NCBI GenBank assembly: GCA_963804825.1
Contig: CAWDRV010000004.1
Span: 271,278-335,277 of the forward strand
Direction: 5' to 3'
Origin: an uncultured Planctomycetia bacterium
GTDB taxonomy: Bacteria; Planctomycetota; Planctomycetia; Pirellulales; Thermoguttaceae
Length of the DNA: 64,000 nt
Shown here: piece after piece, positions 20,024 to 32,554 of the stretch
How the letters are laid out: each line of letters opens with the position of its first letter
How positions within the stretch are numbered: position 1 is the first letter of the stretch
Notes under the pieces: generated by a model
The model's input: the letters and a program-made list of their open reading frames with translations, nothing else
Told to the model about the DNA's origin: nothing
Database searches by the model: none
Translations under genes and position numbers: made by a program

Positions 20024-20068
20024 CGAAATCAGGTGCCGGGCAACCGGTTGAGGGTTCGAATCCCTTGC
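20024..20068 (+). tRNA. Partial tRNA (3' half of a class-II Ser/Leu-like tRNA): probable att-site remnant
   Basis: GGTGCCGGGCAACCGGTTGAGGGTTCGAATCCCTTGCCCTCCGC is a variable-arm, T-arm and 3' acceptor segment. No matching 5' half upstream. Similar to the 3' ends of array tRNAs at 26218 and 27879. Confidence 0.4.
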
Positions 20069-20319: not shown

Positions 20320-20839
20320 CGCTGGCCATCATATTCGGCAGCCGGGCGACCGTGGCGGCGTCCTGGCCCGGGAAGAGGTGCCCGTAGGTATCCATCGTCA
20401 GCACGATCGTCGAGTGCCGCATCACCGATTGCACCGCCTTGGGGTGGGCACCGGCCATCGCCAGCCAGGCCCCGCAGGTGTGTCGGAGACTGTGGAAGTC
20501 GAGGAACTCCCCCTCGTGGTTCTTCTCTCCCAGGAAATCGCTCTCTCCCCGCCGCATAGATTCCTTGGCGTCCCGCTTGGCGGCCTTCAGCCAGGCCTGC
20601 CGGGCGTCGGCCACGTCCGCCCGGAACATCGCGGCGACGTCGGGCCGCGGCTTCATGGCCTCGGTACGAAACGGCGAAACTTCCTTCGTCTCTCCTGTCT
20701 TCCACGTTCGCCACGCTTCCTTCCACGTTTCGTATTCGGCGGCCACTGCCTGTTCCATCGCGCTGGCAAAGCCGCCCTCCCGGTAGTGGCCTAATTTGGC
20801 CGGATTCGCCCTAAAAATGGGTGTGACTTTGAAAGCCAA
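20320..20839 (-). pseudogene. Tyrosine recombinase/integrase C-terminal catalytic fragment (N-terminally truncated, stop lost)
   Basis: FHSLRHTCGAWLAMAGAHPKAVQSVMRHSTIVLTMDTYGHLF is the box II H-x-x-R...Y region. About 155 aa of catalytic domain with no N-terminal domain. The ORF then runs about 160 aa beyond the catalytic Tyr as low-quality sequence. Confidence 0.6.
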
Positions 20840-22267: not shown

Positions 22268-22299
22268 CAATAAAAACGCCCGGAGCGGTGGCAACCGTT

Positions 22300-23330
22300 C
22301 CGGGCAACCACAACCGGGCTTTCGCCCAATTGCGGGTTCGATGCTTGCATTATAGCGAAAGCCCCCAACAAAGGGAAGGCTTCGCTATGTGCAACGTCGT
22401 GAAACCGGAGCGCCAAAAGCAGGTGCTCCACATGCTGGTGGAGGGCAGTTCAATCCGATCCACGTCGCGCCTTACGGGAATCCATCGGGATACCATTGGT
22501 CGGCTGTTGGTCCGTTTCGGGCAAGGGTGCCGTCGTTTGCTCGATAACCGGTTGCAGGGATTGGCTTTACGGCACCTGGAATTGGACGAAATGTGGACTT
22601 TCGTGCTCAAAAAGGAGGGGCGATTGACCCTGGAAGAGCGCCAGGAGCGTTACGACATTGGGGATATTTACCTATGGACCGCCCTTGACCAGAAAACCAA
22701 GCTGATTCCCGCCTTTTTGGTTGGGAAACGGTCGGCAGACAACGCAAGGCGGTTTCTGCGGGACGTGGCCGGCCGGCTGCGGTTCCCCACGGCCCATGAC
22801 TCCGATCCGCACCACTACCAGCCGGGCGGGTATTCGCTGGTAGTGCAGATTTCCAGCGACGCCTTCCGGGCCTATCCCGAAGCGGTTGACTTGGCTTTCG
22901 GCCCCTATTGCAAATACGGCCAGATCATCAAGAACTATCGCAACGCCGACCAGCCGGGGCGCTATGCTCCCCCGGAGATGGTCGAGACTGAGCGCCGGAG
23001 GGTGTTCGCGTTGAGAGAAGACGAGGAGCGGACAATATGCACGTCCCACGTGGAGCGCCACAACTTGACCGTCCGCACCTTGTTGCGGCGGTTCACTCGC
23101 CTTGCTCTGGGATTCTCCAAAAAACTAGAGAACCTCGAGGCGGCGTGCGCGGCGTTTCTGGCGTACTACAACTTCGTTTGGCGAACCAGATACCCGGATG
23201 ACAGCGGGAAGGCAGGGCGGTATCGTCCGCCGGCCGCGGTCATGGCAGGCGTGGTTTCCAACCTCTGGACATTCACAGACCTGTTCAATCGTGTAATGGG
23301 GTAGAACCGGGCTGTTGTGGAGGCATACAT
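22300..23330 (+). mobile_element. IS1-family insertion sequence
   Basis: Contains an IS1-type transposase. Imperfect terminal inverted repeats around CCACAACCGGGCT (about 22307-22325) and CCGGGCTGTTGTGG (about 23300-23325). Confidence 0.55.
22386..23304 (+). CDS. IS1-family transposase (InsAB-like single ORF)
   Basis: N-terminal HTH IRSTSRLTGIHRDTIGRLL (InsA-like). The C-terminal HVERHNLTVRTLLRRFTRLALGFSKKLENLEAACAAFLAYYNF parallels IS1 InsB [41 protein letters not shown]. Confidence 0.7.
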
Positions 23331-24258: not shown

Positions 24259-24796
24259 GAATTCGCCCTTCGTTCTGCGGGTCGGCCCGCGCCGGCTGGG
24301 TTGTCCAGGTGGCCACCCGGCACAACCGTCCGGACGATTCTGCTCCACCCGTTTCTATCCCAGCATGCCCGCCATTTTACCCTCGGCGATGGCGTTTACC
24401 AGCCAGCGGGCGTAACGGCGGCTGCAGGGAGACGGACGGCAATCACTGGCCGCCCCGGGCAAAGGCACGACCTTCTCCATGGGTCACCGGCTCGCACCGT
24501 GGAAAATTTTCCGCGGGGCGGGAATAATTTCGCCCGTTCGAGCGTCTTATAGATAAGGCCGCCGTGCTCGGGAAAATTTCGTGAACTTCTGTAGCATCGG
24601 CGGCGTCTATACGATATAATAGCGATAGTGCGGCCCTCGGCGGGCTGCCAGTTTGAGAGAAAGAGCCATGACTTCGATACGGCTAAGTCACAAACAGCGA
24701 AGATGGATGGGTACATTCGCCGCCCAAGCGGCGAATACGCTCCCGTCCTATCCATTGCGCGTTTGACACCGGCCGTACCTATTCCGAAGAATACCG

Positions 24797-24832
24797 AAAG
24801 CCCGGTGTCATAACGACATCGGGCTTTTTTTA
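24797..24832 (+). terminator. Rho-independent terminator (AAAGCCCGGTG...CATCGGGC + TTTTTTTATT)
   Basis: GC stem agcccg/cgggct followed by a run of 7 T. Lies about 150 nt upstream of the first tRNA of the array. Confidence 0.6.
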
Positions 24833-24985
24833 TTGGGTCGGTAGCTGAGATGCGGGCACCGACCGAAGGTTGGTCGGCGGCGGCCTGAAAAGCCGCAGAC
24901 GCGGATTCGAGCACCGCCCGACCCACTGCGTGAAACGTGCGCGCGAACCCCTTGCTTCAACTGCGTGGAAGGTGCGCGCTGAGAT

Positions 24986-25059
24986 GGCCTGTTCGTCTAT
25001 CGGTTCGAGGACACCGGCCCTTCAAGCCGGGAAGACGGGTTCGACTCCCGTACGGGCCG
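24986..25059 (+). tRNA. tRNA-Glu(UUC), non-canonical (C33)
   Basis: Acceptor ggcctgt/acgggcc. The D-arm TTCGTCTATCGG resembles bacterial tRNA-Glu. Anticodon stem ccggc/gccgg with loop CCTTCAA. T-arm acggg-TTCGACT-cccgt. Confidence 0.7.
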
Positions 25060-25066
25060 CTGTGGG

Positions 25067-25160
25067 CAGAACGTAGCGAAGCCTGGTTATCGCGCGGGCA
25101 CCGATGCGCAGCATTGGTCCGGGGACCAGGAGACCGGCGGTTCAAATCCGCCCGTTCTGA
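25067..25160 (+). tRNA. tRNA-like, 94 nt, Pro-type D-loop, hairpin repeat where anticodon arm should be (probable pseudo-tRNA)
   Basis: Acceptor cagaacg/cgttctg, T-arm ggcgg-TTCAAAT-ccgcc, D-loop AAGCCTGGTTAT. The interior carries GGGCACCGATGCGCAGCATTGGTCC (array hairpin repeat). No standard anticodon arm. Confidence 0.35.
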
Positions 25161-25168
25161 CTGGATGA

Positions 25169-25241
25169 CGGGATGTAGGGTAGCGGCGAACCCGTGTGTT
25201 CTGGGAACACAAGATCGCAGGTTCGAGTCCTGCCATCCCGA
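25169..25241 (+). tRNA. tRNA-Pro(UGG), non-canonical (C33)
   Basis: Acceptor cgggatg/catcccg. Anticodon stem tgtgt/acaca with loop TCTGGGA. T-arm gcagg-TTCGAGT-cctgc. Confidence 0.65.
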
Positions 25242-25267
25242 CCTGACGGACAACGACGTTGGCACAT

Positions 25268-25339
25268 GGTAGTCGAGGGCCGGTTGCCCAAACCCGGCTG
25301 ATAACCGAGTGGCGCTGAGTTCGACTCTCAGGGCTACCA
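25268..25339 (+). tRNA. tRNA-Ile(GAU) (short D-loop; possible indel)
   Basis: Acceptor ggtagtc/ggctacc. Anticodon loop CTGATAA. T-arm ctgag-TTCGACT-ctcag. The D-arm looks truncated. Confidence 0.6.
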
Positions 25340-25405
25340 CTGGAAAGTGAGGAGCATGACCATGAAGCAAACCCGATGGAAACGCATACGCCCGGCCTGC
25401 ATTTC

Positions 25406-25477
25406 GGGGTCGTGGTGTAACGGCAGCACTCCGGACTTTTAATCCGGTAGGTGAAGGTTCGAGTCCTTTCGGCCCCA
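25406..25477 (+). tRNA. tRNA-Lys(UUU)
   Basis: Acceptor ggggtcg/cggcccc. Anticodon stem ccgga/tccgg with loop CTTTTAA. T-arm gaagg-TTCGAGT-ccttt. Confidence 0.8.
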
Positions 25478-25487
25478 CTCGCCGTGA

Positions 25488-25576
25488 CGGCGCGTAGCTC
25501 AATGGTCAGAGCGGGCCTCTTATAAGGGTCAGGACCACCTGCGGTGGTGCCCAGGGTTCGACTCCCTCCGCGCCCA
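25488..25576 (+). tRNA. tRNA-like with long variable hairpin, anticodon loop CTTATAA (UAU?); anticodon and acceptor ambiguous
   Basis: Canonical D-arm TAGCTCAATGGTCAGAGC. Anticodon stem ggcct/gggtc needs two G-U pairs. Variable hairpin ACCACCTGCGGTGGT. T-loop TTCGACT. The 5' acceptor pairing is imperfect. Confidence 0.4.
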
Positions 25577-25602
25577 CTGCTGCGCGTAACGAAGCAGACG
25601 AC

Positions 25603-25675
25603 GGGACCAAGGTGCTAGCGGCAGCACAGCGGATTCTTAATCCGCCAGGTGAGGGTTCAAGTCCCTCTGGTCCCA
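25603..25675 (+). tRNA. tRNA-Lys(CUU)
   Basis: Acceptor gggacca/tggtccc. D-arm gtgc/gcac. Anticodon stem gcgga/tccgc with loop TTCTTAA. T-arm gaggg-TTCAAGT-ccctc. Confidence 0.8.
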
Positions 25676-25690
25676 CTGATGTGAGCACTG

Positions 25691-25790
25691 GTCCGGGCAC
25701 CGACGCGCAGCGTTGGTCGTGGCGAGGATACCGCACCCGTAATGCGGCGACGAGGGTTCGAGTCCGGGCACCGACGCGAAGCGTTGGTCT
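25691..25790 (+). pseudogene. Pseudo-tRNA: Thr(CGU)-like anticodon arm (loop CCCGTAA, C33) flanked by two copies of the hairpin repeat, T-arm broken
   Basis: A direct repeat GTCCGGGCACCGACGCG[C/A]AGCGTTGGTC sits at both ends. Anticodon stem ccgca/tgcgg. The sequence around GGTTCGAGTCC cannot form a 5-bp T-stem. Confidence 0.35.
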
Positions 25791-25827
25791 GGTGCTCCTG
25801 TTGTTTGACAATTCGGCACACCACGAC

Positions 25828-25917
25828 GCGCCCATGGGGCACCGTCGCGAAGCGATGGTCGCGGCAGCCTGCTGCCTTGCCATGGCAGAAGTGCGGGTTC
25901 GACTCCCGCTGGGCGCT
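25828..25917 (+). tRNA. tRNA-Gly(GCC) with expanded D-region containing the hairpin repeat
   Basis: Acceptor gcgccca/tgggcgc. Anticodon stem ctgcc/ggcag with loop TTGCCAT. T-arm gcggg-TTCGACT-cccgc. 34 nt lie between the acceptor and the anticodon arm, including GGGGCACCGTCGCGAAGCGATGGTC. Confidence 0.5.
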
Positions 25918-25925
25918 TTTCAGCG

Positions 25926-26000
25926 CAGGACGTAGGAAAGCCTGGTATTCCGCGTGCCCCGGGCAGCACGAGATCGCGGGTTCAAATCCCGCCGTCCTGA
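25926..26000 (+). tRNA. tRNA-Pro(CGG)-like, 8-nt anticodon loop CCCGGGCA / C33
   Basis: Acceptor caggacg/cgtcctg. D-loop AAGCCTGGTAT. Anticodon stem cgtgc/gcacg. T-arm gcggg-TTCAAAT-cccgc. Confidence 0.5.
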
Positions 26001-26007
26001 CTTTGAT

Positions 26008-26082
26008 TGCGGTGGGGCCTGTGTTGGCACGGGCGGGCGCTTGTTAAGCGTCATGTCGCAGGTTCGATTCCTGCCACCGCAG
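26008..26082 (+). tRNA. tRNA-Asn(GUU)
   Basis: Acceptor tgcggtg/caccgca. Anticodon stem ggcgc/gcgtc with loop TTGTTAA. Variable loop ATGTC. T-arm gcagg-TTCGATT-cctgc. Confidence 0.7.
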
Positions 26083-26096
26083 CCTGTTGAGAGAAC

Positions 26097-26218
26097 GGAA
26101 GGGCAAGCCGGACCACCGCTTCGCGGCGGTGCCCGCGATGGCAGCCGCCGGGCACCATGCGAAGCATGGTCAGCGGCCGAGCGATGAGCCTTGAGGGTTC
26201 GACTCCCTCTCCTTCCGC
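26097..26218 (+). tRNA. Ser-type tRNA-like element, 122 nt with two hairpin insertions (probable pseudo/unusual tRNA)
   Basis: Acceptor ggaaggg/tccttcc (Ser-like), T-arm gaggg-TTCGACT-ccctc. The interior contains CACCGCTTCGCGGCGGTG (UUCG hairpin) and GGGCACCATGCGAAGCATGGTC (array repeat). Confidence 0.3.
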
Positions 26219-26223
26219 CTGCT

Positions 26224-26312
26224 GTGCCCTTGGCCGGCCGGCAGAGGTGCCAGCCTTCCAAGCTGGCGCGACCAACCTTCGGTCGGTGCCCGGTTCGACT
26301 CCCACAGGGCAC
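26224..26312 (+). tRNA. tRNA-Gly(UCC)-like with reverse-orientation hairpin repeat in variable region, defective T-arm (pseudo)
   Basis: Acceptor gtgccct/agggcac. Anticodon stem ccagc/gctgg with loop CTTCCAA, followed by GCGCGACCAACCTTCGGTCGGTGCCC. Relative to the paralog at 27439 it lacks about 18 nt, so the T-stem cannot pair. Confidence 0.35.
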
Positions 26313-26327
26313 TCTCAGCGATGACGA

Positions 26328-26398
26328 TCGGGGATCAGCTAGTGGCAGGCTTCCTGGCTTTGAACCAGGCAACGGAGGTTCAACCCCTCCTCCCCGAG
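26328..26398 (+). tRNA. tRNA-Gln(UUG)
   Basis: Acceptor tcgggga/tccccga (U1-A72 as in bacterial Gln). Anticodon stem cctgg/ccagg with loop CTTTGAA. T-arm ggagg-TTCAACC-cctcc. Confidence 0.75.
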
Positions 26399-26435
26399 CT
26401 TGCAGCCGGCGAGCCGTGTCTCGTCACGCAAACGA

Positions 26436-26506
26436 TGCGGAGTCATCTAACGGTAGGATGAGACTCTCTGAAGGTCTTCATGTTGGTTCAACTCCAGCCT
26501 CCGCAG
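26436..26506 (+). tRNA. tRNA-Gln(CUG)
   Basis: Acceptor tgcggag/ctccgca. D-stem catc/gatg. Anticodon stem agact/ggtct with loop CTCTGAA. T-arm gttgg-TTCAACT-ccagc. Confidence 0.7.
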
Positions 26507-26515
26507 CTTGATAAC

Positions 26516-26601
26516 GGAAGCCATCCGGCCGGATGAGGAGCCTGTCTTGAAAACAGGTGGCGGCCCGACGCCGCTTGTGGGTTCGAGTCCCACGGCTTCC
26601 G
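26516..26601 (+). tRNA. tRNA-Ser(UGA)
   Basis: Acceptor ggaagcc/ggcttcc. Anticodon stem cctgt/acagg with loop CTTGAAA. Long variable arm TGGCGGCCCGACGCCGCT. T-arm gtggg-TTCGAGT-cccac. Confidence 0.75.
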
Positions 26602-26606
26602 CCTTT

Positions 26607-26677
26607 GGGGTCATGGTCCAACAGGACGACGCCAGCTCCGCACGCTGGAGATCCGGGTGCGACTCCCGGTGACTCCA
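26607..26677 (+). tRNA. tRNA-Ala(CGC), non-canonical (C33, T-loop TGCGACT), G3-U70 present
   Basis: Acceptor ggggtca/tgactcc gives G3-U70 and discriminator A. Anticodon stem ccagc/gctgg with loop TCCGCAC. T-arm ccggg-TGCGACT-cccgg. Confidence 0.65.
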
Positions 26678-26689
26678 CTGTAGAAACAT

Positions 26690-26761
26690 AGCCCCGTGGT
26701 CCAACGGCAACGACGCTTGGTCCACACCCAGGAAACGATGGTTCGACTCCATCCGGGGCTA
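26690..26761 (+). tRNA. tRNA-Val(CAC), non-canonical (C33)
   Basis: Acceptor agccccg/cggggct. D-arm GTCCAACGGCAACGAC. Anticodon stem cttgg/ccagg with loop TCCACAC. T-arm gatgg-TTCGACT-ccatc. Confidence 0.65.
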
Positions 26762-26765
26762 CTGC

Positions 26766-26839
26766 GGCTCGGTAGGCAACCGGCAGACCACCTTGGCTTA
26801 GAACCAGGGATGCTGTGGGTTCGACTCCCACCTGAGCCA
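26766..26839 (+). tRNA. tRNA with anticodon UAG (Leu) on a class-I body (short variable loop), non-canonical
   Basis: Acceptor ggctcgg/ctgagcc, discriminator A. Anticodon stem cttgg/ccagg with loop CTTAGAA. Variable loop GATGC. T-arm gtggg-TTCGACT-cccac. Confidence 0.55.
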
Positions 26840-26853
26840 CTGTGAACGACCCT

Positions 26854-26928
26854 GCCCTCGTGGAGCAGCCTGGAGTGCTCGCCTGCCTGTCACGCAGGAG
26901 ATCGCGGGTCCAAATCCCGTCGAGGGCG
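26854..26928 (+). tRNA. tRNA-Asp(GUC) (T-loop TCCAAAT, C54)
   Basis: Acceptor gccctcg/cgagggc, discriminator G. D-stem gagc/gctc. Anticodon stem cctgc/gcagg with loop CTGTCAC. T-arm gcggg-TCCAAAT-cccgt. Confidence 0.7.
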
Positions 26929-26942
26929 CTTTCAAGTATGAC

Positions 26943-27017
26943 GGCGCGGTACGCAAATCGGCAAAGCGGTCAAGCTCAAACCTTGGTGATCTGCGGGTTC
27001 GACTCCCGCCTGTGCCA
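26943..27017 (+). tRNA. tRNA with anticodon CAA (Leu) on a class-I body, non-canonical
   Basis: Acceptor ggcgcgg/ctgtgcc. D-arm CGCAAATCGGCAAAGCG. Anticodon stem tcaag/cttgg with loop CTCAAAC. Short variable loop. T-arm gcggg-TTCGACT-cccgc. Confidence 0.5.
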
Positions 27018-27028
27018 CTGGAAACCAT

Positions 27029-27112
27029 GCGTCAACTGGGCATCGGCGAGCCCAACTGCCCGTAAAACAGCCAGCCCGAAAGGCTATGCAGGTTCGACTC
27101 CTGCCCGGCGCA
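27029..27112 (+). tRNA. Class-II-like tRNA element, anticodon arm degenerate (loop CCCGTAAAA), acceptor mismatched (probable pseudo/chimera)
   Basis: D-arm GGGCATCGGCGAGCCC. Variable hairpin AGCCCGAAAGGCT. T-arm gcagg-TTCGACT-cctgc. The 5' gcgtcaa does not fully pair with the 3' ccggcgc. Confidence 0.3.
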
Positions 27113-27122
27113 CTGACAACAT

Positions 27123-27195
27123 GGCCCGTTCGTCTATCGGCCAAGGACACCGGCCCCTCACGCCGGAAAGGCGGGTTCAATTCCCGCACGGGCTG
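27123..27195 (+). tRNA. tRNA-Glu(CUC), non-canonical (C33)
   Basis: Paralog of 24986. Acceptor ggcccgt/acgggct. Anticodon stem ccggc/gccgg with loop CCCTCAC. T-arm gcggg-TTCAATT-cccgc. Confidence 0.65.
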
Positions 27196-27202
27196 CTGAC
27201 AT

Positions 27203-27284
27203 GACCAAGTGGCGCAACTGGTAGACGCGCGACGCTCAGAACGTCGTGCCGCAAGGCATGGGAGTTCGAATCTCCCCTTGGTCA
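27203..27284 (+). tRNA. tRNA-Leu(CAG), class II
   Basis: Acceptor gaccaag/cttggtc, discriminator A. D-arm GGCGCAACTGGTAGACGCG. Anticodon stem cgacg/cgtcg with loop CTCAGAA. Variable hairpin TGCCGCAAGGCAT. T-arm gggag-TTCGAAT-ctccc. Confidence 0.75.
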
Positions 27285-27295
27285 CTGAGGAATTG

Positions 27296-27362
27296 CAGGC
27301 GCGGCAGGTGCCCAACTGGCTCCCATAAGGCCGGTGCGCCCGGCTCGATACCGGGGCCTGCA
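27296..27362 (+). tRNA. Degenerate tRNA-like element, anticodon loop CCCATAA (CAU, C33)
   Basis: Acceptor tgcaggc/gcctgca. T-arm cccgg-CTCGATA-ccggg. The interior is only 38 nt, with a 4-bp anticodon stem ggct/ggcc. Confidence 0.3.
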
Positions 27363-27364
27363 AC

Positions 27365-27429
27365 TGCGGGTGGGCCAGTGCTCAGCCGGGCCCCATAAGC
27401 CTGGACCGCCGGGCGCAACACCCGGACCC
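27365..27429 (+). tRNA. Degenerate tRNA-like element, anticodon loop CCCATAA (CAU, C33), 1-72 mismatch
   Basis: T-arm ccggg-CGCAACA-cccgg. Acceptor tgcgggt/acccgcc has a T1xC72 mismatch. Anticodon stem gggc/gcct. Confidence 0.25.
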
Positions 27430-27438
27430 GCCACTTGC

Positions 27439-27530
27439 GACCGGGTACGCAAATTGGCATAGCGGCGCGACCAACCTTCGGTCGGTGCCCGAGAGCCTCG
27501 TGCCTGTGGGTTCGACTCCCACCTCGGTCA
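27439..27530 (+). tRNA. Class-II-like tRNA with reverse-orientation hairpin repeat occupying the anticodon-arm position (loop AACCTTC)
   Basis: Acceptor gaccggg/ctcggtc. D-arm CGCAAATTGGCATAGCG. The anticodon-position segment CGACC-AACCTTC-GGTCG is part of GCGCGACCAACCTTCGGTCGGTGCCC. Variable arm GAGAGCCTCGTGCC. T-arm gtggg-TTCGACT-cccac. Confidence 0.4.
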
Positions 27531-27544
27531 CTGACAAGGAAAAC

Positions 27545-27617
27545 GATCCCGTGGTCCAACGGCGAAGACGCCTGGGTGACAACCAGGAAAGCGATGGTTC
27601 GACTCCATCCGGGATCA
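27545..27617 (+). tRNA. tRNA-Val(GAC)
   Basis: Acceptor gatcccg/cgggatc. D-arm GTCCAACGGCGAAGAC. Anticodon stem cctgg/ccagg with loop GTGACAA. T-arm gatgg-TTCGACT-ccatc. Confidence 0.7.
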
Positions 27618-27711
27618 TGTTGGAAAAACGGTCTGTAGGTGTTTCGGCAGCACACCTCCTCGGTAAAGAGGAAGACCCGGTTCATCTCCGGGACGGACCT
27701 CTTGATGATGC

Positions 27712-27782
27712 GGGCCGCTGGTCCAACGGGAAGACGCTTGGTTTGCACCCAGGCAATCGGGGTTCGATTCCCCGGCGGTCCA
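27712..27782 (+). tRNA. tRNA-Ala(UGC)
   Basis: Acceptor gggccgc/gcggtcc with G3-U70, discriminator A. Anticodon stem cttgg/ccagg with loop TTTGCAC. T-arm cgggg-TTCGATT-ccccg. Confidence 0.8.
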
Positions 27783-27791
27783 CTGAAATAC

Positions 27792-27879
27792 GGAAGGTAG
27801 CCGGATACCGGGTTGCCGGGCCGCCCCGCTAAGGCGGTTCTCCCCTGTGGAGATGAGGGTTCAACTCCCTTGCCTTCCG
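27792..27879 (+). tRNA. tRNA-Ser(GCU), class II, non-canonical (C33)
   Basis: Acceptor ggaaggt/gccttcc, discriminator G. Anticodon stem ccgcc/ggcgg with loop CCGCTAA. Variable hairpin TCTCC-CCTGT-GGAGA. T-arm gaggg-TTCAACT-ccctt. Confidence 0.65.
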
Positions 27880-27898
27880 CTTGGTGTGTCGGGTTGAC

Positions 27899-27969
27899 GC
27901 CCCGATAGTGAAACGGAAATCATGCCTCGCTTCTAACGAGGCGATCCAGGTTCAACTCCTGGTCGGGGT
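27899..27969 (+). tRNA. tRNA-Arg(UCU)
   Basis: Acceptor gccccga/tcggggt. Anticodon stem cctcg/cgagg with loop CTTCTAA. T-arm ccagg-TTCAACT-cctgg. Confidence 0.75.
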
Positions 27970-27990
27970 GCTGGCGGAGACAGTTATATA

Positions 27991-28066
27991 TGGTGTCCGT
28001 GGTGTAGCGGTTCCTGCACGCCTGGCTGTGAACCAGGAGGTAGGGGTTCGATTCCCCTCGGATACC
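27991..28066 (+). tRNA. tRNA-His(GUG) with encoded G-1 and C73
   Basis: G at -1, acceptor gtgtccg/cggatac, discriminator C. Anticodon stem cctgg/ccagg with loop CTGTGAA. T-arm agggg-TTCGATT-cccct. Confidence 0.8.
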
Positions 28067-28096
28067 CCTGGGGAGAATTGTGGGAAGGAGAACGTT

Positions 28097-28693
28097 ATGG
28101 TCACCAAGGTACTCCAGCGGCCGACGCTGGTGCTGAACCGCAACTGGCAGCCGGTGAACGTCGCCACCGTGACGCGGGCACTGGTGCTGCTGTGGAACGA
28201 GTCTGCGCGCGTCGTGGACCCGGCCGACTACCAGCTCTACACCTGGGCCGACTGGGCCAAGCTGCGGCCGGGCAACGGCGAGGACTGCATCCAGGCGGTG
28301 AGGTTCAAGCTGCGGGTGCCGGAAGTGGTCGCACTGAGCGGCTACGATCGGCTGCCGACGGCCCACGTGACCTTCAGCCGCCGGAACATTTTCAAGCGGG
28401 ACCACTACACCTGCCAGTACTGCGGCGCCCAGCCGGGCAGCGATGAACTGACGCTGGACCACGTCCTGCCGCGTTCCCAGGGTGGCGTGTCGGGTTGGGG
28501 GAACTGCGTGCTGGCCTGTGTGGCCTGCAACAAGCGGAAGGCCGATCGGACACCGGAGCAAGCACGGATGCACCTGCGCCGTAAGCCGGTCCGGCCGACG
28601 TGGAAGCCGCTCTATGCGGATCACGAGGTGCGGATCGAGAGCTGGTCGAAGTTCGTCAGCGAAGCGTACTGGAACGTAAGGCTTGAGACCTGA
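28097..28693 (+). CDS. HNH endonuclease
   Basis: ATG at 28097 with RBS GGAAGGAGAA. HNH motif CQYCGAQPGSDELTLDHVLPRSQGG...NCVLACVACNKRK. 198 aa. Embedded in the tRNA array; the larger listed ORF 27881..28693 overlaps tRNAs and is spurious. Confidence 0.8.
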   Translation: MVTKVLQRPTLVLNRNWQPVNVATVTRALVLLWNESARVVDPADYQLYTWADWAKLRPGNGEDCIQAVRFKLRVPEVVALSGYDRLPTAHVTFSRRNIFKRDHYTCQYCGAQPGSDELTLDHVLPRSQGGVSGWGNCVLACVACNKRKADRTPEQARMHLRRKPVRPTWKPLYADHEVRIESWSKFVSEAYWNVRLET

Positions 28694-28736
28694 GACCTGA
28701 GACCTGAGACCTGAGGCTTGAGGCTTGAGTGGTGAG
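28681..28736. repeat. Tandem heptad repeats (GCTTGAG/ACCTGAG x8)
   Basis: gcttgag acctgag acctgag acctgag acctgag gcttgag gcttgag tggtgag overlaps the HNH stop codon. An inverted complement array lies at 29117-29196. Confidence 0.7.
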
Positions 28737-28740
28737 GAAG

Positions 28741-29121
28741 TTAGGCACTTCGGCGAAGAGACCGCACTAGACCTGCCAGGACCTTTGCGGTCTCGTCCGC
28801 CTGTTGTGCGACTTTCTGGGCGGCATCGTCCGGCACGTATCCTAGGCGATGAGCGACCGTAAGCTGGTACTGGACCTCACGCGATGAACCAAACGCCATG
28901 TCGAGAAAACGAATGTAGTCGGCCTGCGAGTGCCTGGCGCAGCCCTCGACGATATTCGAGGCAATGGAGATTGCGGCACGACGCAATTGGATGGTCAGTC
29001 CGAACTGCTCCTGCCTAGGAAATGTCTTGGTAATTGAATAGATCGACAGAACAAGATTGTCGGCTAACTCGAACGCACGGAGTTTTCGATGGTCTCGCAT
29101 CGCTGTATTGTGCCACTTCAA
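28741..29121 (-). CDS. Four-helix-bundle protein (23S rRNA intervening-sequence protein family, TIGR02436-like)
   Basis: MRDHRKLRAFELADNLVLSIYSITKTFPRQEQFGLTIQLRRAAISIASNIVEGCARHSQADYIRFLDMAFGSSREVQYQL matches the conserved family pattern (FGLTSQLRRAA.SI..NIAEG). The start may be the Met at 29100 rather than 29121. Confidence 0.7.
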   Translation of the reverse strand: MKWHNTAMRDHRKLRAFELADNLVLSIYSITKTFPRQEQFGLTIQLRRAAISIASNIVEGCARHSQADYIRFLDMAFGSSREVQYQLTVAHRLGYVPDDAAQKVAQQADETAKVLAGLVRSLRRSA

Positions 29122-29196
29122 GCCTCACAACTCAAGCCTCAGGCCCCAGGCCTCAAGCCTAAGGCCCCAGGCCTCAAGCCTAAGGCCTCAGGCCTA
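29117..29196. repeat. Tandem heptad/21-bp repeats (CTCAAGC/CTAAGGC/CCCAGGC), inverted complement of the 28681-28736 array
   Basis: caagcctcacaactcaagcctcaggccccaggcctcaagcctaaggccccaggcctcaagcctaaggcctcaggcct. Together with the left array it can form a long imperfect stem around the 4HB gene. Confidence 0.65.
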
Positions 29197-29200
29197 TTAC

Positions 29201-29270
29201 AGGAGTGTCCTCCTGGGAGAGGAAGCGGCCTCCAAAGCCGCTGCACGGGGTTCGAATCCTCGCGCTCCTG
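29201..29270 (+). tRNA. tRNA-Trp(CCA)
   Basis: Acceptor aggagtg/cgctcct, discriminator G. Anticodon stem gcggc/gccgc with loop CTCCAAA. T-arm cgggg-TTCGAAT-cctcg. Confidence 0.75.
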
Positions 29271-29273
29271 CTT

Positions 29274-29345
29274 GCCGACGTGGCCGAAAGGCAAGGCGGC
29301 GGTCCTGTAAACCGCATGATGCTGGTTCGAATCCAGTCGTCGGCT
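29274..29345 (+). tRNA. tRNA-Thr(UGU), non-canonical (C33)
   Basis: Acceptor gccgacg/cgtcggc. D-arm GCCGAAAGGCAAGGC. Anticodon stem gcggt/accgc with loop CCTGTAA. T-arm gctgg-TTCGAAT-ccagt. Confidence 0.6.
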
Positions 29346-29356
29346 TTGGTACGTTT

Positions 29357-29428
29357 GTCCCGATGGTGTAGCGGATCGCACGGGGCTCTCCTAAGGCCCT
29401 GGCCCTGGTTCGACTCCAGGTCGGGACA
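29357..29428 (+). tRNA. tRNA-Arg(CCU)
   Basis: Acceptor gtcccga/tcgggac. D-arm GTGTAGCGGATCGCAC. Anticodon stem gggct/ggccc with loop CTCCTAA. T-arm cctgg-TTCGACT-ccagg. Confidence 0.75.
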
Positions 29429-29434
29429 CTATTC

Positions 29435-29506
29435 GTCTCGATGGTGTAGCGGATCGCATAGGACCCTCCGAAGGTCCAGGTCCAGGTTCGACTCCTGGTC
29501 GAGACA
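29435..29506 (+). tRNA. tRNA-Arg(CCG)
   Basis: Acceptor gtctcga/tcgagac. Anticodon stem ggacc/ggtcc with loop CTCCGAA. T-arm ccagg-TTCGACT-cctgg. Confidence 0.75.
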
Positions 29507-29509
29507 TTT

Positions 29510-29582
29510 GCCCTGCGAGTGTGCCGGATTAGCACGGCAGACTACGAATCTGCAAGACGGGGTTCGATTCCTCGGCGGGGCG
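29510..29582 (+). tRNA. tRNA-Arg(ACG)
   Basis: Acceptor gccctgc/gcggggc, discriminator G. Anticodon stem gcaga/tctgc with loop CTACGAA. T-arm cgggg-TTCGATT-cctcg. Confidence 0.75.
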
Positions 29583-29593
29583 CTGAAACGAAT

Positions 29594-29666
29594 GTCCTCG
29601 GAGTGTGCCGGATAAGCACGCGACCGTGCGAAGGTCGTAGACCAGGTCCAATTCCTGGCGAGGACG
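29594..29666 (+). tRNA. Arg-type tRNA body with anticodon arm CGACC-GTGCGAA-GGTCG (GCG; stem identical to the hairpin-repeat core), T-loop TCCAATT
   Basis: Paralog of 29510 (same D-arm GTGTGCCGGATAAGCAC). Acceptor gtcctcg/cgaggac. Purine at position 32, anticodon GCG. Confidence 0.45.
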
Positions 29667-29690
29667 CTTGACAATTCGGCGCTGGAGCCA
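29667..29690. repeat. Direct repeat DR1 (CTTGACAATTCGGCGCTGGAGCCA): promoter-like TTGACA plus a copy of the first 13 nt of tRNA-Cys
   Basis: 21 of 24 positions identical to 30734-30757, which is the true 5' end of tRNA-Cys. The two repeats flank a 1.04-kb lower-GC insert. Confidence 0.6.
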
Positions 29691-29859
29691 CAGCATAGCA
29701 TTTGGGCGGCGGTCGCCCATCGCAGATGTAAGCGGGCCAACTGGCGCACCCCACCACAATTCGGTGCGACAGCGCATCGTGTCGGGCCATAGCCCGCCCG
29801 AGAATGCGCTAATCTCACTGTGGATAACAAGGGATTCCCAGTCAACGCGGAGAAATGCA

Positions 29860-30738
29860 ATGGCCATCAATTACCAACGAGCGAGTGAACTGCTACTAGA
29901 GACCCAACAAGCAATGCAGTGCGACGAAAGCACGCGTCTGTGCGAAGCGGTGGGCAAGTTGCTGGATGCGCGTCTATGTGGGGCTGATCCTTGGGACTGG
30001 CGCTACAACACCACGCATTGGGCATTGGATGTGGTCAATGTCTGTAAGGAGATCGGGTACAGCGTTGCATGGATGCGAGCGTTGGCTCGCTACTGCTCGG
30101 AGTCGGAGGAGCAGGATCGGCAATCCGTCGAGGGCCTCGTGTCGTATTATGCGGACAACGCTGCAACGAGGATCAGTTCGTGCCGTGACAAACTCGCGCT
30201 CCTTGCATGGTCGTATTATTGCCCATTCAACCCTGACAAGAAGGACGACGTCTTGAGTTTTGAGCAGGTTCACGCCCGATTGACCACCCCGCTTAGGTTC
30301 GGCCTCCACTTCAACGGTCACAATGAGTTCCTCGTCGAACTGAACAAGCTCCTGGGATCAGGCTTTGAAAGGGCTATTGCCTACCGACACAAAAAGGTAC
30401 ATCGCATGGAACCGCGCGTTATGATGCGTAAGCCCGAGGTCCCCGACCAACGATGTTACATGTTTGCGGTAACGACAGAAAAGGACGTTCGCGGATTCGA
30501 CGATAAGCTCAAGAAGATGTACCCAGATGATGGGTTTCGAGCAGAAGTCCGACAGGGGTGCTTCCTCGATGGCGTGCTTTTTGACCGGCGAGCGCCCGAG
30601 GAATTGCTCTGGCACTTCGAGGATTTCGACGGATTCACTTATCCTTGTTGGAAGAGTCTATGTGATGCGACCGCGGGCTCGTGCGAGATACTGTTACGTC
30701 GTGAACCAATGCTTTCAAAGGCTGGCCAAGGCACTTGA
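29860..30738 (+). CDS. Hypothetical protein (cargo of insertion within tRNA array; lower GC)
   Basis: ATG at 29860 with RBS GGAGAAA. 292 aa, no recognisable motifs. About 50% GC against about 65% for the flanks. Confidence 0.5.
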   Translation: MAINYQRASELLLETQQAMQCDESTRLCEAVGKLLDARLCGADPWDWRYNTTHWALDVVNVCKEIGYSVAWMRALARYCSESEEQDRQSVEGLVSYYADNAATRISSCRDKLALLAWSYYCPFNPDKKDDVLSFEQVHARLTTPLRFGLHFNGHNEFLVELNKLLGSGFERAIAYRHKKVHRMEPRVMMRKPEVPDQRCYMFAVTTEKDVRGFDDKLKKMYPDDGFRAEVRQGCFLDGVLFDRRAPEELLWHFEDFDGFTYPCWKSLCDATAGSCEILLRREPMLSKAGQGT

Positions 30739-30757
30739 CAACGTGGCGCTGGAGCCA
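30734..30757. repeat. Direct repeat DR2 (CTTGACAACGTGGCGCTGGAGCCA), overlaps 5' end of tRNA-Cys
   Basis: Matches DR1 at 29667-29690. Confidence 0.6.
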
Positions 30758-30816
30758 GACGGCACGGCGGCTGCCTGCAAAGCAGCTTCAAGTGGGTTCG
30801 ACTCCCACCGGCGCCT
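30745..30816 (+). tRNA. tRNA-Cys(GCA)
   Basis: Acceptor ggcgctg/cggcgcc, discriminator U. D-arm GCCAGACGGCACGGC. Anticodon stem gctgc/gcagc with loop CTGCAAA. T-arm gtggg-TTCGACT-cccac. Confidence 0.8.
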
Positions 30817-30927
30817 TTTTGGAAGCAATGATACGGCCGGGCCAACGGCGCAGCGCCGCCCTGTCCTCCAGCGAGGCGGTCGGCGACGTGCGTTCCGTAC
30901 ATGGGTTCTGACCGATGGTCGTGTCAA

Positions 30928-31000
30928 GCGAGGTTAGCTCAGTGGATAGAGCACCAGACCAATAATCTGGCTGTCGCGGGTTCGACTCCCGTACCAACAC
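30928..31000 (+). pseudogene. Pseudo-tRNA (canonical D-arm TAGCTCAGTGGATAGAGC, loop CCAATAA, 3' acceptor does not pair with 5' end)
   Basis: T-arm gcggg-TTCGACT-cccgt is followed by accaaca, but the 5' acceptor is gcgaggt. Anticodon stem ccaga/tctgg with A34 and C33. Confidence 0.35.
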
Positions 31001-31447
31001 CGCAGGCTAAACCCCTGCTCCAAACGGCCCGCGACCAACGCGGGGCGTTGGTGCCCGGCGGGCCAACGTGTGATCGGCCACCGGCGGCCGAGCGACCGAC
31101 GGCGCCGAGGACTCTGGGCATACTGCCTGTAAGGCAGCGCCCGGAGGAATCGACGCCCAAGGGAGCACACGGTTGTCCGGTGGCAGCACGGCCGAGTGCC
31201 ATGTAGTGCGTGGATACCGCTTCCGCCGGCCTCCGGCAAGCGGCAACGGATGCCTGGCGACTCGCCCCAGGGCTTTGCCCCTTCGGCGACCAGCCCGGCG
31301 GAAACTGCCGCACCGCCGCAGGCTATGCGGATGCTCAAACGACACTCCGCAGTTGTCCGTGTGATCGCCGCTGGCTCCGCCGCCCGACGGCTTTATGAAA
31401 CGCAGACAAGAGCGGCCCACGAAAGGCCGCAGGAAGGAAGGTGAAGG

Positions 31448-32554
31448 ATGTTCGTCATCAAGACCGTCAAGATTCGCAGCTACGAAACGGGCCTGCACTT
31501 CCGTGACGGCGAGTTCAAGGGCCTGCTCGGCGCCGGCCGGCACTGGTTCTTCGACCCGCTGGGCAAGGTCAAGGTGGAGGTCGTCTCGCAGCGCAGCCCG
31601 TGGCTGGCCCACGAGAAGCTCGACGTGATCGTCAAGTCGGGGGCGCTGAAGGACCGCGCCGTGGTGCTGGACCTGAAGGACTACCAGCGGGCCGCTGTGT
31701 GGGTGGACGGCCGGTTCAGCCACATCCTGCCGCCGGGCCTGTACGCCTACTGGACCACCTTCCGCGAGGTCGCCGTCGAGGTGATCGACGCCCGCCGTGT
31801 CCGCTTCGAGCACAAGGACCTCCAGGTGATCGTCCGCTCGGCGCTGGCCGATCGGCTGCTGGATGCCTTTGCCGTCGAGCAGGGCCACGTCGGCGTGCTG
31901 TTCGAGGACGGCCGCTACGTCGAGACCCTGCCGCCGGGCAAGTACGCCTTCTGGAAGAACATGGCCAAGGTCATGCTCGTGCCGATGGACCTGCGCGAGA
32001 CGATGCTGGACATCGGCGGCCAGGAGATCATGACCGCCGACAAGGTCACGCTCCGCCTGAACGCGGTGGCCACTTACCGGGTGGCCGACGCCCACAAGGC
32101 GCTGAGCGCGGCCGACGACGCCCGCCAGGCCCTGTACCGCGAGGCCCAGTTGGCCCTGCGGGCGGTGATCGGCGGCCGCGAACTCGACCAGTTCCTGGCC
32201 GACAAGGACGCCGTGGCCAAGGAACTGGAGGTCATCGTCCGGCAGCGGGTGGCTGCGCTGGGTCTGGAGGTCATCTCGGTGGGCATCCGCGACGTGATCC
32301 TGCCGGGCGACATGAAGGACCTGATGAACAAGGTCACGGAGGCCAAGAAGGCGGCCGAGGCCAACCTGATCGTTCGCCGCGAGGAAACCGCGGCCATGCG
32401 CAGCCAGGCCAACACGGCCAAGGTGCTGGAGGGCAACCCGACGCTGATGCGGCTCCGGGAACTGGAAGTCCTGGAGCGGGTCGCCACCAGCGGCAAGCTG
32501 AACGTCGTGCTGGGCGAGAAGGGCCTGGCCGAGCGGGTCGTGAACCTGCTCTGA
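31448..32554 (+). CDS. SPFH/band-7 domain protein
   Basis: 368 aa. A hairpin terminator follows at 32562-32600. Confidence 0.75.
   Translation: MFVIKTVKIRSYETGLHFRDGEFKGLLGAGRHWFFDPLGKVKVEVVSQRSPWLAHEKLDVIVKSGALKDRAVVLDLKDYQRAAVWVDGRFSHILPPGLYAYWTTFREVAVEVIDARRVRFEHKDLQVIVRSALADRLLDAFAVEQGHVGVLFEDGRYVETLPPGKYAFWKNMAKVMLVPMDLRETMLDIGGQEIMTADKVTLRLNAVATYRVADAHKALSAADDARQALYREAQLALRAVIGGRELDQFLADKDAVAKELEVIVRQRVAALGLEVISVGIRDVILPGDMKDLMNKVTEAKKAAEANLIVRREETAAMRSQANTAKVLEGNPTLMRLRELEVLERVATSGKLNVVLGEKGLAERVVNLL

Follow-up and report, generated by a model that had tools for sequence, protein, structure and literature searches.

The 64,000-nucleotide stretch of contig CAWDRV010000004.1 analysed here (assembly GCA_963804825.1, an uncultured Planctomycetia bacterium; the whole stretch is called the window below) holds an array of 42 tRNA or tRNA-like units, all on the + strand, between 24835 and 31000. 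We believe that this array, together with an HNH endonuclease gene lying inside it and a conserved leader lying in front of it, is probably an L-array operon of a Pirellulales type. Namely, it would be an ancient, collinear and supernumerary set of approximately 42 tRNAs, kept with a conserved HNH gene and controlled by an attenuator that senses the ribosome. The units were delimited by matching them to the tRNAs of related arrays, and the main parts of the locus are as follows.

24835..28068, + strand: first part of the array, 34 units (ARAGORN, Rfam, related arrays)
28097..28693, + strand: HNH endonuclease gene, 198 aa (Pfam HNH/HNH_5)
29201..29667, + strand: second part of the array, 6 units, namely Trp, Thr UGU, Arg CCU, Arg CCG, Arg ACG and Arg GCG (ARAGORN, Rfam, related arrays)
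30745..30816, + strand: tRNA-Cys(GCA) (ARAGORN, Rfam)
30925..31000, + strand: terminal tRNA-like unit with D, anticodon and T arms and an acceptor stem of only 3 bp (Rfam tRNA model positions 5-66, 45.6 bits)

Judged by their anticodons, the 42 units represent all 20 amino acids. The first part begins with Phe, Glu, Pro GGG, Pro UGG, Ile GAU, Lys UUU, Ile UAU and Lys CUU, continues with Thr CGU, Gly GCC, Pro CGG, Asn, Ser CGA, Gly UCC, Gln UUG and Gln CUG, then with Ser UGA, Ala CGC, Val CAC, Leu UAG, Asp, Leu CAA, Tyr, Glu CUC and Leu CAG, and ends with two Met, Leu GAG, Val GAC, Thr GGU, Ala UGC, Ser GCU, Arg UCU and His, in an order that matches the related loci. The HNH gene sits between this tRNA-His and the tRNA-Trp that opens the second part. 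The units are packed densely (34 in the 3.23 kb of 24835-28068, and 42 in 6.2 kb) and in a single orientation, with spacings mostly of 3-100 nt. ARAGORN finds 35 + strand tRNAs in 24835-30816, and not the mere handful that would have spoken against an earlier, unaided reading of this DNA (the earlier note hereafter). The Rfam tRNA model, whose gathering score is reached by 27 of the 42 units while the other 15 stay below it, adds two that ARAGORN missed, at 26607-26677 (Ala CGC) and at 30932-30995. The Tyr unit and two Met-like units are not called by ARAGORN, and each of the 42 units has orthologues in related arrays. The earlier note had described about 38 units in about 6 kb; it was right about a large array on one strand and counted too few units. 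In particular, it listed 30 units in the first block, where there are 33 in 24986-28068, and overlooked the tRNA-Phe at 24835, while its six units at 29201-29666, followed by a tRNA-Cys and a terminal pseudo-tRNA, are all recovered in the comparison with related arrays. Elsewhere in the window, a 73-nt tRNA-Leu(GAG) called by ARAGORN at 5854-5926 finds no Rfam match at gathering score and lies inside a long - strand open reading frame (ORF); it is probably a false positive, and we did not use it as evidence of a tRNA outside the array.

A first body of evidence for the operon is the conservation of the array. The HNH protein has more than 540 relatives in contigs taken from one genome per species, and the best 80 of these loci, 67-97% identical at the protein level, belong nearly all to Pirellulales, Thermoguttaceae or Planctomycetia metagenome-assembled genomes (MAGs). 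We scanned the tRNA order in 43 related Pirellulales/Planctomycetia loci, which carry L numbers here, and in approximately 35 of them the HNH gene is embedded in a tRNA array of matching order. The shared order starts with Phe-Glu-Pro-Pro-Ile-Lys-Ile(UAU)-Lys-Thr-Gly-Pro-Asn-Ser-Gly-Gln-Gln-Ser and ends with Leu(GAG)-Val-Thr-Ala-Ala-Ser-Arg-His-[HNH]-Trp-Thr-Arg(x3-4)-Cys; the content of the relatives' arrays varies. At the DNA level, homology with the relatives extends from approximately 24500 to approximately 32600 and covers a 330-nt leader, the array and a gene of the SPFH/Band 7 family, with nothing shared upstream of 24500 or downstream of 32600.

31448..32554, + strand: SPFH/Band 7 gene, the conserved downstream neighbour (Pfam)

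A homologue of the SPFH gene is found downstream of the array in 30 of the 80 loci, at up to 94% amino-acid identity, and upstream the related loci have no conserved neighbour genes, any one gene being common to at most 4 of them. The closest relative, L001 (CAWDSU010000008.1), has an HNH protein 97% identical to that of the window and DNA approximately 91% identical, and its array is truncated upstream of Leu(CAG). It was deposited in a MAG labelled as a Methanoregulaceae archaeon, but the contig is almost certainly mis-binned planctomycete sequence.

These data bear directly on the view of the earlier note that the local context marks a recently acquired island, in other words, that a mobile tRNA island was brought in together with the neighbouring integrase and insertion sequence elements. 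Several of the underlying observations hold. An IS1-like transposase does lie upstream at 22288-23304, the integrase remnant is a C-terminal integrase fragment at 19907-20839 on the - strand, and patches of lower GC are present upstream. What is more, none of the related loci shares the genes that lie upstream of the array or past the SPFH gene, some MAGs hold two copies of the array, relatives of the HNH protein occur in phage tRNA clusters, and L-arrays are generally thought to spread horizontally (PMC8421152, PMC4758250). However, the array, its order and the HNH gene are common to most related Pirellulales loci, so that within the Pirellulales/Planctomycetia the distribution is widespread and collinear rather than sporadic, and the homology has exactly the limits of the module given above. 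The G+C content of the array (0.62-0.63) is the same as that of its flanks, and the low-GC patches inside it, which the earlier note had taken as a sign of foreign origin, are two later inserts, an intervening-sequence (IVS)-like element and a HEPN-like cassette. The IS1-like ORF has no match in any related locus, the integrase fragment has a weak match in only two (40-43% identity), and the partial tRNA suspected near 20.0 kb turned out to be a weak match at the level of chance (21.6 bits, E = 0.88). Finally, a search of 2.9 million IMG/VR contigs returned an array of the Pirellulales type on 1 only. The earlier note had itself named conservation of the array among relatives, along with its being the sole tRNA source of the genome, as what would tell against acquisition, and the first half of this is what we find, the array being collinear in most related Pirellulales loci. 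A recent acquisition is, in our judgement, unlikely; the order may have acquired the array long ago, possibly from a phage.

The second body of evidence for the operon concerns its leader, a conserved region at 24521-24831 that emerges from an alignment of the 360 nt upstream of tRNA-Phe in 15 loci. Its parts are listed here in the order of transcription.

24521..24548, + strand: upstream promoter motif resembling those of extracytoplasmic function (ECF) sigma factors, GGAAT-N17-CGTCTT (conserved in most of the 15 aligned leaders)
24582..24609, + strand: second ECF-sigma-like promoter motif, TGAAC-N17-CGTCTA (-35 GAA and -10 TCT invariant in 15/15 aligned leaders)
24655-24665, + strand: purine-rich Shine-Dalgarno-like stretch (sequence)
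24668..24766, + strand: leader ORF, 32 codons plus UGA, encoding MTSIRLSHKQRRWMGTFAAQAANTLPSYPLRV (ORF conservation, frame test)
24678..24688, + strand: segment 0 (codons 4-7), the putative anti-antiterminator, pairing with segment 1 (predicted folds, covariation)
24716..24735, + strand: apical hairpin within the leader ORF, TTCGCCGC-CCAA-GCGGCGAA (sequence, alignment conservation, predicted folds)
24765..24777, + strand: segment 1, overlapping the UGA stop codon and pairing either with segment 0 or, as antiterminator, with the 5' arm of the terminator (folds, pairing conservation)
24800..24831, + strand: intrinsic terminator with arms at 24800-24809 and 24815-24824 and seven T's (terminator scan, folding)

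The leader ORF is probably translated, and we base this on the following. It is found in 37 of 41 loci, with an N-terminal pattern and a C-terminal (Y/H)-P-L-R-(L)-UGA in common. In a test that makes no assumption about frame, 29 of 29 loci have a distance between a conserved AGY triplet and the TGA that is divisible by 3, despite 10 different lengths ranging from 75 to 117 nt; in 25 of 28 loci the conserved AGT follows the ATG at a distance of six codons, and the codons of the C-terminal P-L-R vary synonymously (CCN, YTG, CGN). The codon usage of the ORF is peculiar as well, since A/T-ending codons account for 42% of the leader ORFs as compared with 12% of the HNH gene and 5% of the SPFH gene. 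Codons 3-7, which overlap segment 0, are mostly rare A/T-ending ones (TTT, TTG, TTA, ATA, CGG, CTA, AGT), and no single amino acid dominates among them. As for the two promoter motifs, they may be assigned to ECF sigma factors by virtue of their resemblance to the consensus (GAAC/GGAAT ... CGTC).

The terminator, with a folding energy of -18 kcal/mol, has a T-tract that ends 3 nt before tRNA-Phe, and it is the stronger of the only two + strand matches in a terminator scan of 24-33 kb, the other being a weak stem of 5 bp that lies within the IVS-like insert, at 29087-29102. Across 35 loci, the terminator helix is 97.7% paired and the antiterminator helix 93.0%, against 22-43% for slid controls. 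In folds of the stretch that begins at the stop codon and ends with the 5' arm of the terminator, segment 1 pairs with that arm in 30 of 37 loci, and when the leader is folded in full, the minimum-energy structure combines the helix of segments 0 and 1 with the terminator, likewise in 30 of 37. This 0:1 helix is paired in 82.5% of cells and shows 25 double-change cells, values reached by 0 of 500 shuffles; one of its pairs, for instance, is G-C in 9 loci, A-U in 7, C-G in 6 and G-U in 4. Taken together, the predicted pairings give the leader the classical four-segment arrangement of a ribosome-mediated attenuator, in which the apical hairpin could possibly serve as a pause hairpin for RNA polymerase.

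On these grounds, the operon might work in the following way. Transcription would start at one or both of the ECF-sigma-like, presumably stress-responsive promoters at 24521-24609, and the transcript would then run into the ribosome-sensing attenuator, where, around the rare-codon leader ORF, segment 1 would pair either with segment 0 or with segment 2, the latter being the 5' arm of the terminator before tRNA-Phe. If a ribosome translated the ORF smoothly to its stop codon, or if there were no translation at all, segment 1 would be masked or paired with segment 0, the terminator would form and the array would stay off. If, on the other hand, a ribosome stalled early, it would cover segment 0, segment 1 would pair with segment 2, and polymerase would read through into the array and the HNH gene. 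Such a stall could be brought about by a shortage of charged rare-codon tRNAs, by tRNA cleavage or by a translation inhibitor. Following general tRNA biology, RNase P and RNase Z would process the polycistronic transcript, which would comprise the tRNAs and the HNH mRNA, and a CCA-adding enzyme, which is needed because CCA is encoded in none of the array tRNAs, would complete the products and thereby provide a backup tRNA pool. The HNH protein would most likely act at the level of DNA, maintaining or spreading the array as a homing-type nuclease.

That said, a number of points should be held against this picture. The covariation in the terminator and antiterminator helices is weak (1-2 pairs) because their sequences are nearly invariant. 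In the last 8 codons of the leader ORF, entropy is not generally higher at third positions, and the conservation of the leader peptide could stem partly from constraints on RNA structure. Promoter activity, readthrough and aminoacylation are all inferred from sequence, as is the use of the array tRNAs in translation, on which their non-canonical features (C33, an A53:A/G61 pair in Phe, Leu tRNAs of class-I size) and covariance scores lower than those of tRNAs outside the arrays cast some doubt. In addition, at least 8 units of the window array are clearly broken.

It is instructive to compare the leader with known ribosome-mediated attenuators, such as those of trp, his, thr and pheA, and with antibiotic-responsive leaders. 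Like these, it has a short leader ORF, an intrinsic terminator with a U-tract before the regulated genes, three mutually exclusive helices (0:1, 1:2 and 2:3) and a stop codon inside the switching segment. Unlike these, it precedes tRNA genes and not genes of amino-acid biosynthesis or resistance, and it lacks a run of codons for a single amino acid, the early codons being generally rare and A/T-ending. A T-box or another known leader RNA is ruled out, as no Rfam family, T-box (RF00230) included, matches the leader in 24300-24900 even at E <= 10. A full-text literature search, incomplete in its coverage, turned up no publication in which tRNA arrays are brought together with leader peptides or attenuation, and a leader-peptide attenuator with a terminator switch in front of a tRNA array appears to be new. 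Of the trp type and conserved across an order of bacteria, it would offer a concrete and easily testable mechanism, and it would tie the supply of tRNAs to the stalling of ribosomes.

The third body of evidence comes from the tRNAs themselves, whose sequences speak for selected structured RNAs and not for drifting pseudogenes, since their cloverleaves are preserved by compensatory substitutions. In particular, among 40 orthologues of Leu(GAG) the cloverleaf is kept with double changes at 13 of 22 predicted pairs, and among 37 orthologues of Phe with double changes at 9 of 20. ARAGORN made 1534 calls for the window and L001-L080, and in most of these by far the discriminator base is followed by C and then by T(U). 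Position 33, which is nearly universally U in tRNAs, is C in Leu GAG (41 of 42), Pro GGG (13 of 14), Glu CUC (32 of 41), Thr CGU (22 of 33) and Val CAC (8 of 11), while most array isoacceptors retain U33. Conservation of C33 within an isoacceptor, as in the 41 of 42 copies of Leu GAG, would indicate constraint and not drift. Furthermore, Leu UAG, CAA, GAG and UAA are of class-I size (approximately 75 nt), and the A53:A/G61 pair of tRNA-Phe is conserved.

Two peculiarities of individual units may be noted at this point. The two adjacent Met(CAU)-like units at 27290-27437, approximately 70 nt each, have the non-standard T-loops CTCGATA and CGCAACA, and their orthologues are called by ARAGORN as tRNA-Met of 69-71 nt in at least 20 loci. 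The terminal unit has D, anticodon and T arms that are conserved across its orthologues, yet its three anticodon positions are hypervariable, with an entropy of 1.8-2.0 bits as compared with 0.46 for the core among otherwise similar copies. The triplets found there are AAT, GTG, ATC, TGG, GAT, CCG, GTA, GAG, CAC, GTT, CAG, AAG, ATG, TAA, CGT, CAA, TTA and GCT (the orthologues compared being those of L001, L002, L004, L005, L008-L011, L015, L018, L024, L026, L027, L030, L054-L056, L061, L062, L071, L072, L077 and L080). Between the window and L001, this unit has 5 differences in 85 nt, of which 3 are exactly the anticodon.

The earlier note also proposed that the array is not the native tRNA complement, and here we agree: it is probably a supernumerary set and not the housekeeping one, because more canonical tRNAs with the same anticodons occur near the arrays on related contigs, which, and not this genome, are the source of our own evidence on redundancy, and because canonical tRNA sets were found elsewhere in the genomes that carry such clusters, the clusters being extra (Kim 2016, PMC4807772, S2 Text). 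In L039, for example, a tRNA-Lys(UUU) outside the array scores 78.7 bits versus 57.5 bits for the inside copy, and L003 has, outside its array, an 84-nt class-II tRNA-Leu(CAA), the copy inside being 75 nt long. The tRNA-Ile(UAU), the sole codon class confined to the degenerate clusters (Kim 2016, PMC4807772, S2 Text), is at 25488-25577 in the window. In L039 it is the tRNA with the highest score inside the array, 67.9 bits.

Long tRNA arrays have been known for approximately a decade, and to our knowledge that of Anabaena is the only one whose function has been studied. The array as such would hardly surprise a specialist; it is the attenuator that makes the question of what L-arrays are for directly testable. 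Arrays of this kind have been described before (Tran 2016, PMC4758250; Santamaria-Gomez 2021, PMC8421152; Kim 2016, PMC4807772), and the present one is a member of the known class of L-arrays and planctomycete degenerate tRNA clusters. With L-arrays such as the trn operon of Anabaena PCC 7120 it shares the defining density of at least 20 tRNA genes at a minimum of 2 per kb (Tran 2016, PMC4758250), as well as the single strand, a spacing that permits co-transcription, a probably supernumerary character, several non-canonical tRNAs, the lack of encoded CCA and a neighbouring HNH gene of the same protein family, aligning over the full length. The Anabaena array is silent and is induced by antibiotics that target the ribosome (PMC8421152), and the planctomycete attenuator would act likewise, keeping its array silent until translation is impaired. 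The regulation of the Anabaena array, however, has been traced to direct repeats in its promoter (PMC8421152), whereas here we find the putative leader-peptide attenuator and ECF-like promoters. The HNH gene of cyanobacterial L-arrays lies directly upstream of the array (PMC8421152), in contrast to the one between His and Trp here, and the planctomycete array is collinear across an order and not sporadic. Finally, in the array of a Nostoc plasmid (L201), the one such array checked, we saw neither C33 loops nor the N73-C-U trailer of the planctomycete arrays.

The clusters reported by Kim 2016 (PMC4807772, S2 Text) resemble the present array in belonging to Planctomycetes, in consisting of partly degraded tRNAs with lower covariance scores, and in including one well-formed tRNA-Ile(UAU), which in the window copy carries a hairpin in the variable loop. 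They were thought to be of foreign origin and were called degenerate and possibly dispensable (Kim 2016, PMC4807772). In contrast to the 2-28 genes per cluster, weak similarity and disrupted synteny reported there, many MAGs show a collinear array of up to approximately 40 genes, with a conserved HNH gene and leader, and a search of that text for the relevant terms finds no mention of HNH or hairpin inserts. The differences from the described cases are, in sum, the order-wide collinearity, the HNH gene inside the array, the attenuator, C33 together with the C-U trailer, and the invasion by hairpins.

The presence of an HNH gene, recognized already in the earlier note, is confirmed by Pfam (HNH/HNH_5, 28097-28693), and its ATG at 28097 is preceded by a Shine-Dalgarno sequence of its own, GGGAAGGAGAA. 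The HNH domain is of the Cas9/IscB type, with the catalytic motif CxxC ... DH ... N ... CxxC and the fold both present, and it follows an N-terminal alpha/beta domain of approximately 85 residues that belongs to no recognized family; the AlphaFold2 model has a mean predicted local distance difference test score (pLDDT) of 77. An exact-sequence look-up in public assemblies returned no record of an identical protein. Annotated homologues of phages and plasmids align over the full length at 31-42% identity. Those on plasmids of Nostoc, Tolypothrix and Acaryochloris are full-length, and the cyanobacterial family, at 35-39% identity in full-length alignment, has the N-terminal domain in common with ours. 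The planctomycete and cyanobacterial clades align end to end, each being internally 74-95% conserved, and on the Nostoc plasmid the HNH homologue lies directly upstream of an array of 21 tRNAs. Relatives in or beside tRNA clusters are also found in phage Tunturi_5, with 13 tRNAs around, in S-CRM01 and in Arthrobacter phage Mimi. Relatives of 49-53% identity are encoded on two large IMG/VR contigs that have tRNA clusters too; the exceptions, with no adjoining tRNAs, are the relatives in a Tsukamurella record and in a 595-kb phage. In this way, the tRNA clusters of planctomycetes, of cyanobacteria and of several large phages are tied to a single HNH family. A further parallel is offered by phages whose tRNA clusters contain homing endonucleases, such as T4 with SegB, in that HNH relatives of the two-domain type lie in or beside such clusters, but the present array is chromosomal, order-wide, approximately 42 tRNAs long and equipped with an attenuator leader. 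SegB itself is a GIY-YIG and not an HNH enzyme.

The gene has undergone insertions in some relatives. In L040 (2531-2600), hairpin elements lie in frame within the HNH gene, one nested in another, in place of TWKPLY, and in L037 (10001-10660) and L077 (9447-10130), unrelated in-frame inserts of 72-90 nt follow the CxxC motif; these probably correspond to the HNH variants of 225-237 aa in the protein database.

Could the HNH protein and the altered anticodon loops instead belong to a conflict over tRNAs? Under such a scenario, the C33 tRNAs would be resistant to nucleases and rescue translation, or else the HNH protein would cut canonical tRNAs, with the array as the antidote of an addiction module. 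The prevalence of C33 in Leu(GAG), Pro(GGG), Glu(CUC) and Thr(CGU), given above, would fit, as would an attenuator that senses stalled ribosomes. What is more, the phage HNH relative among 13 tRNAs is also near a gene for an RtcB-type ligase, and the HNH domain weakly matches the PtuB models of PADLOC (E = 6.5e-9). The effector of retron-Eco7 is reportedly PtuAB. That effector is countered by phage tRNAs (PMC11555353), and phage tRNAs with altered anticodon loops evade anticodon nucleases (PMC10264068). However, the PtuB match is limited to the generic HNH motif, and HNH domains of the Cas9/IscB kind match as well or better. A PADLOC search of the HNH, HEPN-like, SPFH and IVP proteins yielded matches to the generic HNH motif only. 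Most array isoacceptors keep U33, and the resistance conferred by C33 is conjecture. We find a role in tRNA conflict improbable as the explanation of the locus, and it is moreover compatible with, and not exclusive of, the attenuated, supernumerary L-array operon that we favour. Going one step further along the lines of the latter, we would tentatively suggest, as a possibility and not as our expectation, that the operon insures translation: the attenuator, opened by a stall, would release a complete second tRNA set, several members of which would, by virtue of their altered C33 loops, survive the tRNA-cleaving toxins or phage defences that caused the stall, with the HNH protein as a working partner, in array maintenance or in tRNA conflict, and not a mere parasite.

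The copy of the array in the window is partly eroded, while its leader and HNH gene are intact, and much of this erosion can be followed in detail. Namely, we found a hairpin element of 20-24 nt that resembles repetitive extragenic palindromic (REP) sequences, an imperfect palindrome of the form GGGCACC-[stem-loop]-GGTC with conserved ends and covarying stems. The window has 12 matches to the pattern, where 0.98 are expected by chance, and 11 of these are hairpins. Ten of them interrupt 8 tRNAs (Phe, Pro GGG, Ile UAU, Thr CGU twice, Gly GCC, Ser CGA twice, Gly UCC and Leu GAG).

24854..24875, + strand: REP-like hairpin in the D-loop of tRNA-Phe
25096..25119, + strand: REP-like hairpin replacing the 5' strand of the anticodon stem of tRNA-Pro(GGG)
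25533..25552, - strand: REP-like hairpin in the variable loop of tRNA-Ile(UAU)
25695..25789, + strand: two REP-like hairpins in tRNA-Thr(CGU), in the D arm (25695-25718) and in the T arm (25766-25789)
25837..25860, + strand: REP-like hairpin in the D arm of tRNA-Gly(GCC)
26111..26171: two REP-like hairpins in tRNA-Ser(CGA), in the D loop (26111-26134, - strand) and in place of the anticodon loop (26150-26171, + strand)
26270..26291, - strand: REP-like hairpin at the junction of variable loop and T-stem of tRNA-Gly(UCC)
27469..27490, - strand: REP-like hairpin replacing 4 nt of the anticodon stem of tRNA-Leu(GAG)
31033..31056, - strand: REP-like hairpin just downstream of the array, with a matching copy in L001 at 11820-11843

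Compared with uninterrupted orthologues, each hairpin replaces approximately 4-6 nt of its target, and the same comparison showed neither a target-site duplication nor a target consensus. One 22-nt hairpin sequence occurs three times, at 24854 (+), 26270 (-) and 27469 (-), and the insertion in Leu(GAG) is recent, because it is missing in L001 despite otherwise identical flanks. At the loci anchored on the HNH gene there are 112 pattern matches, 59 on the + and 53 on the - strand, and 97 of the 112 lie in arrays; the raw counts of 105 and 112 include a few false positives in HNH coding sequence (L001 10304, L004 464). At least 120 metagenome contigs carry the element, and in an unbiased metagenome scan approximately 40% of the contigs that bear it have tRNA arrays while approximately 60% have no tRNA. 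It is, by these two measures together, a genome-wide REP-like repeat with a strong preference for arrays, and the idea that it is specific to arrays is only partly true. That the hairpins are introns removed from tRNAs at the RNA level is ruled out by their occurrence on either strand, by the loss of stem strands and of one anticodon to them, by their differing presence between close relatives and by the copies outside arrays; all of this points to an element that is mobile at the DNA level. Like REP and miniature inverted-repeat transposable element (MITE) palindromes, it is short, has conserved ends, occurs in both orientations and in many copies, also outside arrays, and can be nested. Unlike REP elements, it sits largely inside structured RNA genes and even in the HNH ORF, makes no target-site duplication and is strongly enriched in arrays. 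Neither a REP-associated tyrosine transposase (RAYT) nor any other transposase turned up, no search having been aimed at transposases. In L167, L151 and L181, metagenome contigs with no tRNAs, a second conserved motif, GGGTGCCTGGGGTCGAC, or a tandem of partial copies often comes before the hairpin, an arrangement that resembles compound REP clusters.

The paralogues and degenerate copies of which the earlier note spoke are accordingly real, eight units having hairpins and the Tyr and two Met-like units escaping ARAGORN. Should one then regard the whole array as a genomic fossil, a set of decaying pseudogenes retained only by a selfish HNH gene? The broken units, the modest share that reach the Rfam gathering score, the variable content of the relatives' arrays and the verdict of Kim 2016 would all agree with it, but the compensatory substitutions in the cloverleaves, the conservation of leader ORF, attenuator and promoter motifs across dozens of loci, that of the HNH protein among the best 80 loci and that of C33 within isoacceptors leave this with little credibility in our eyes. 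Rather, the degenerate clusters are under structural selection, and the tiny hairpin element is one agent of their decay.

Apart from the hairpins, the window copy carries two larger inserts, both mentioned above as the low-GC patches of the array.

28684..29181, - strand: IVS-like insert with inverted flanking repeats of the type CTGAGAC/CTGAGGC (Pfam, NCBIfam)
29691..30722, + strand: HEPN-like cassette, approximately 1 kb (comparison with relatives)

The cassette has an ORF at 29860-30738 (292 aa) with a Pfam match to HEPN (Cthe_2314-like) at E = 1.5e-5, below the gathering score; RNase activity is common among HEPN domains. The cassette, inserted beside or within tRNA-Cys (29668-30744), lies between the copies of a duplication of approximately 36 nt, cttgacaaNNNggcgctggagcca, which takes in the 5' end of tRNA-Cys and leaves a 5' fragment of it at about 29679-29691, and it is missing from L001, L002, L004, L005 and L009, that is, from all five relatives compared. 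Further downstream, 2-4 kb from the array, a HAMP-SpoIIE (PP2C) phosphatase gene and a STAS-domain gene at 34151-36037 are parts of a partner-switching module of sigma-factor regulation, a pair that is not conserved beside the array in relatives. The IVS-like insert had been correctly spotted in the earlier note, and it holds an ORF for a four-helix-bundle protein of the 23S_rRNA_IVP family at 28741-29121 on the - strand (PF05635, E = 1.8e-33). It differs from the IVS class proper in its position, which is the spacer of a tRNA operon, overlapping the 3' end of the HNH gene, and not an rRNA; its left repeat provides the last codons and the stop of the HNH gene. Only the closest relative, L001, shares the insert, which L002, L004, L005 and L009 lack, and homologues of the IVP/Avd-like protein occur at other positions of the array in L034 and L077.

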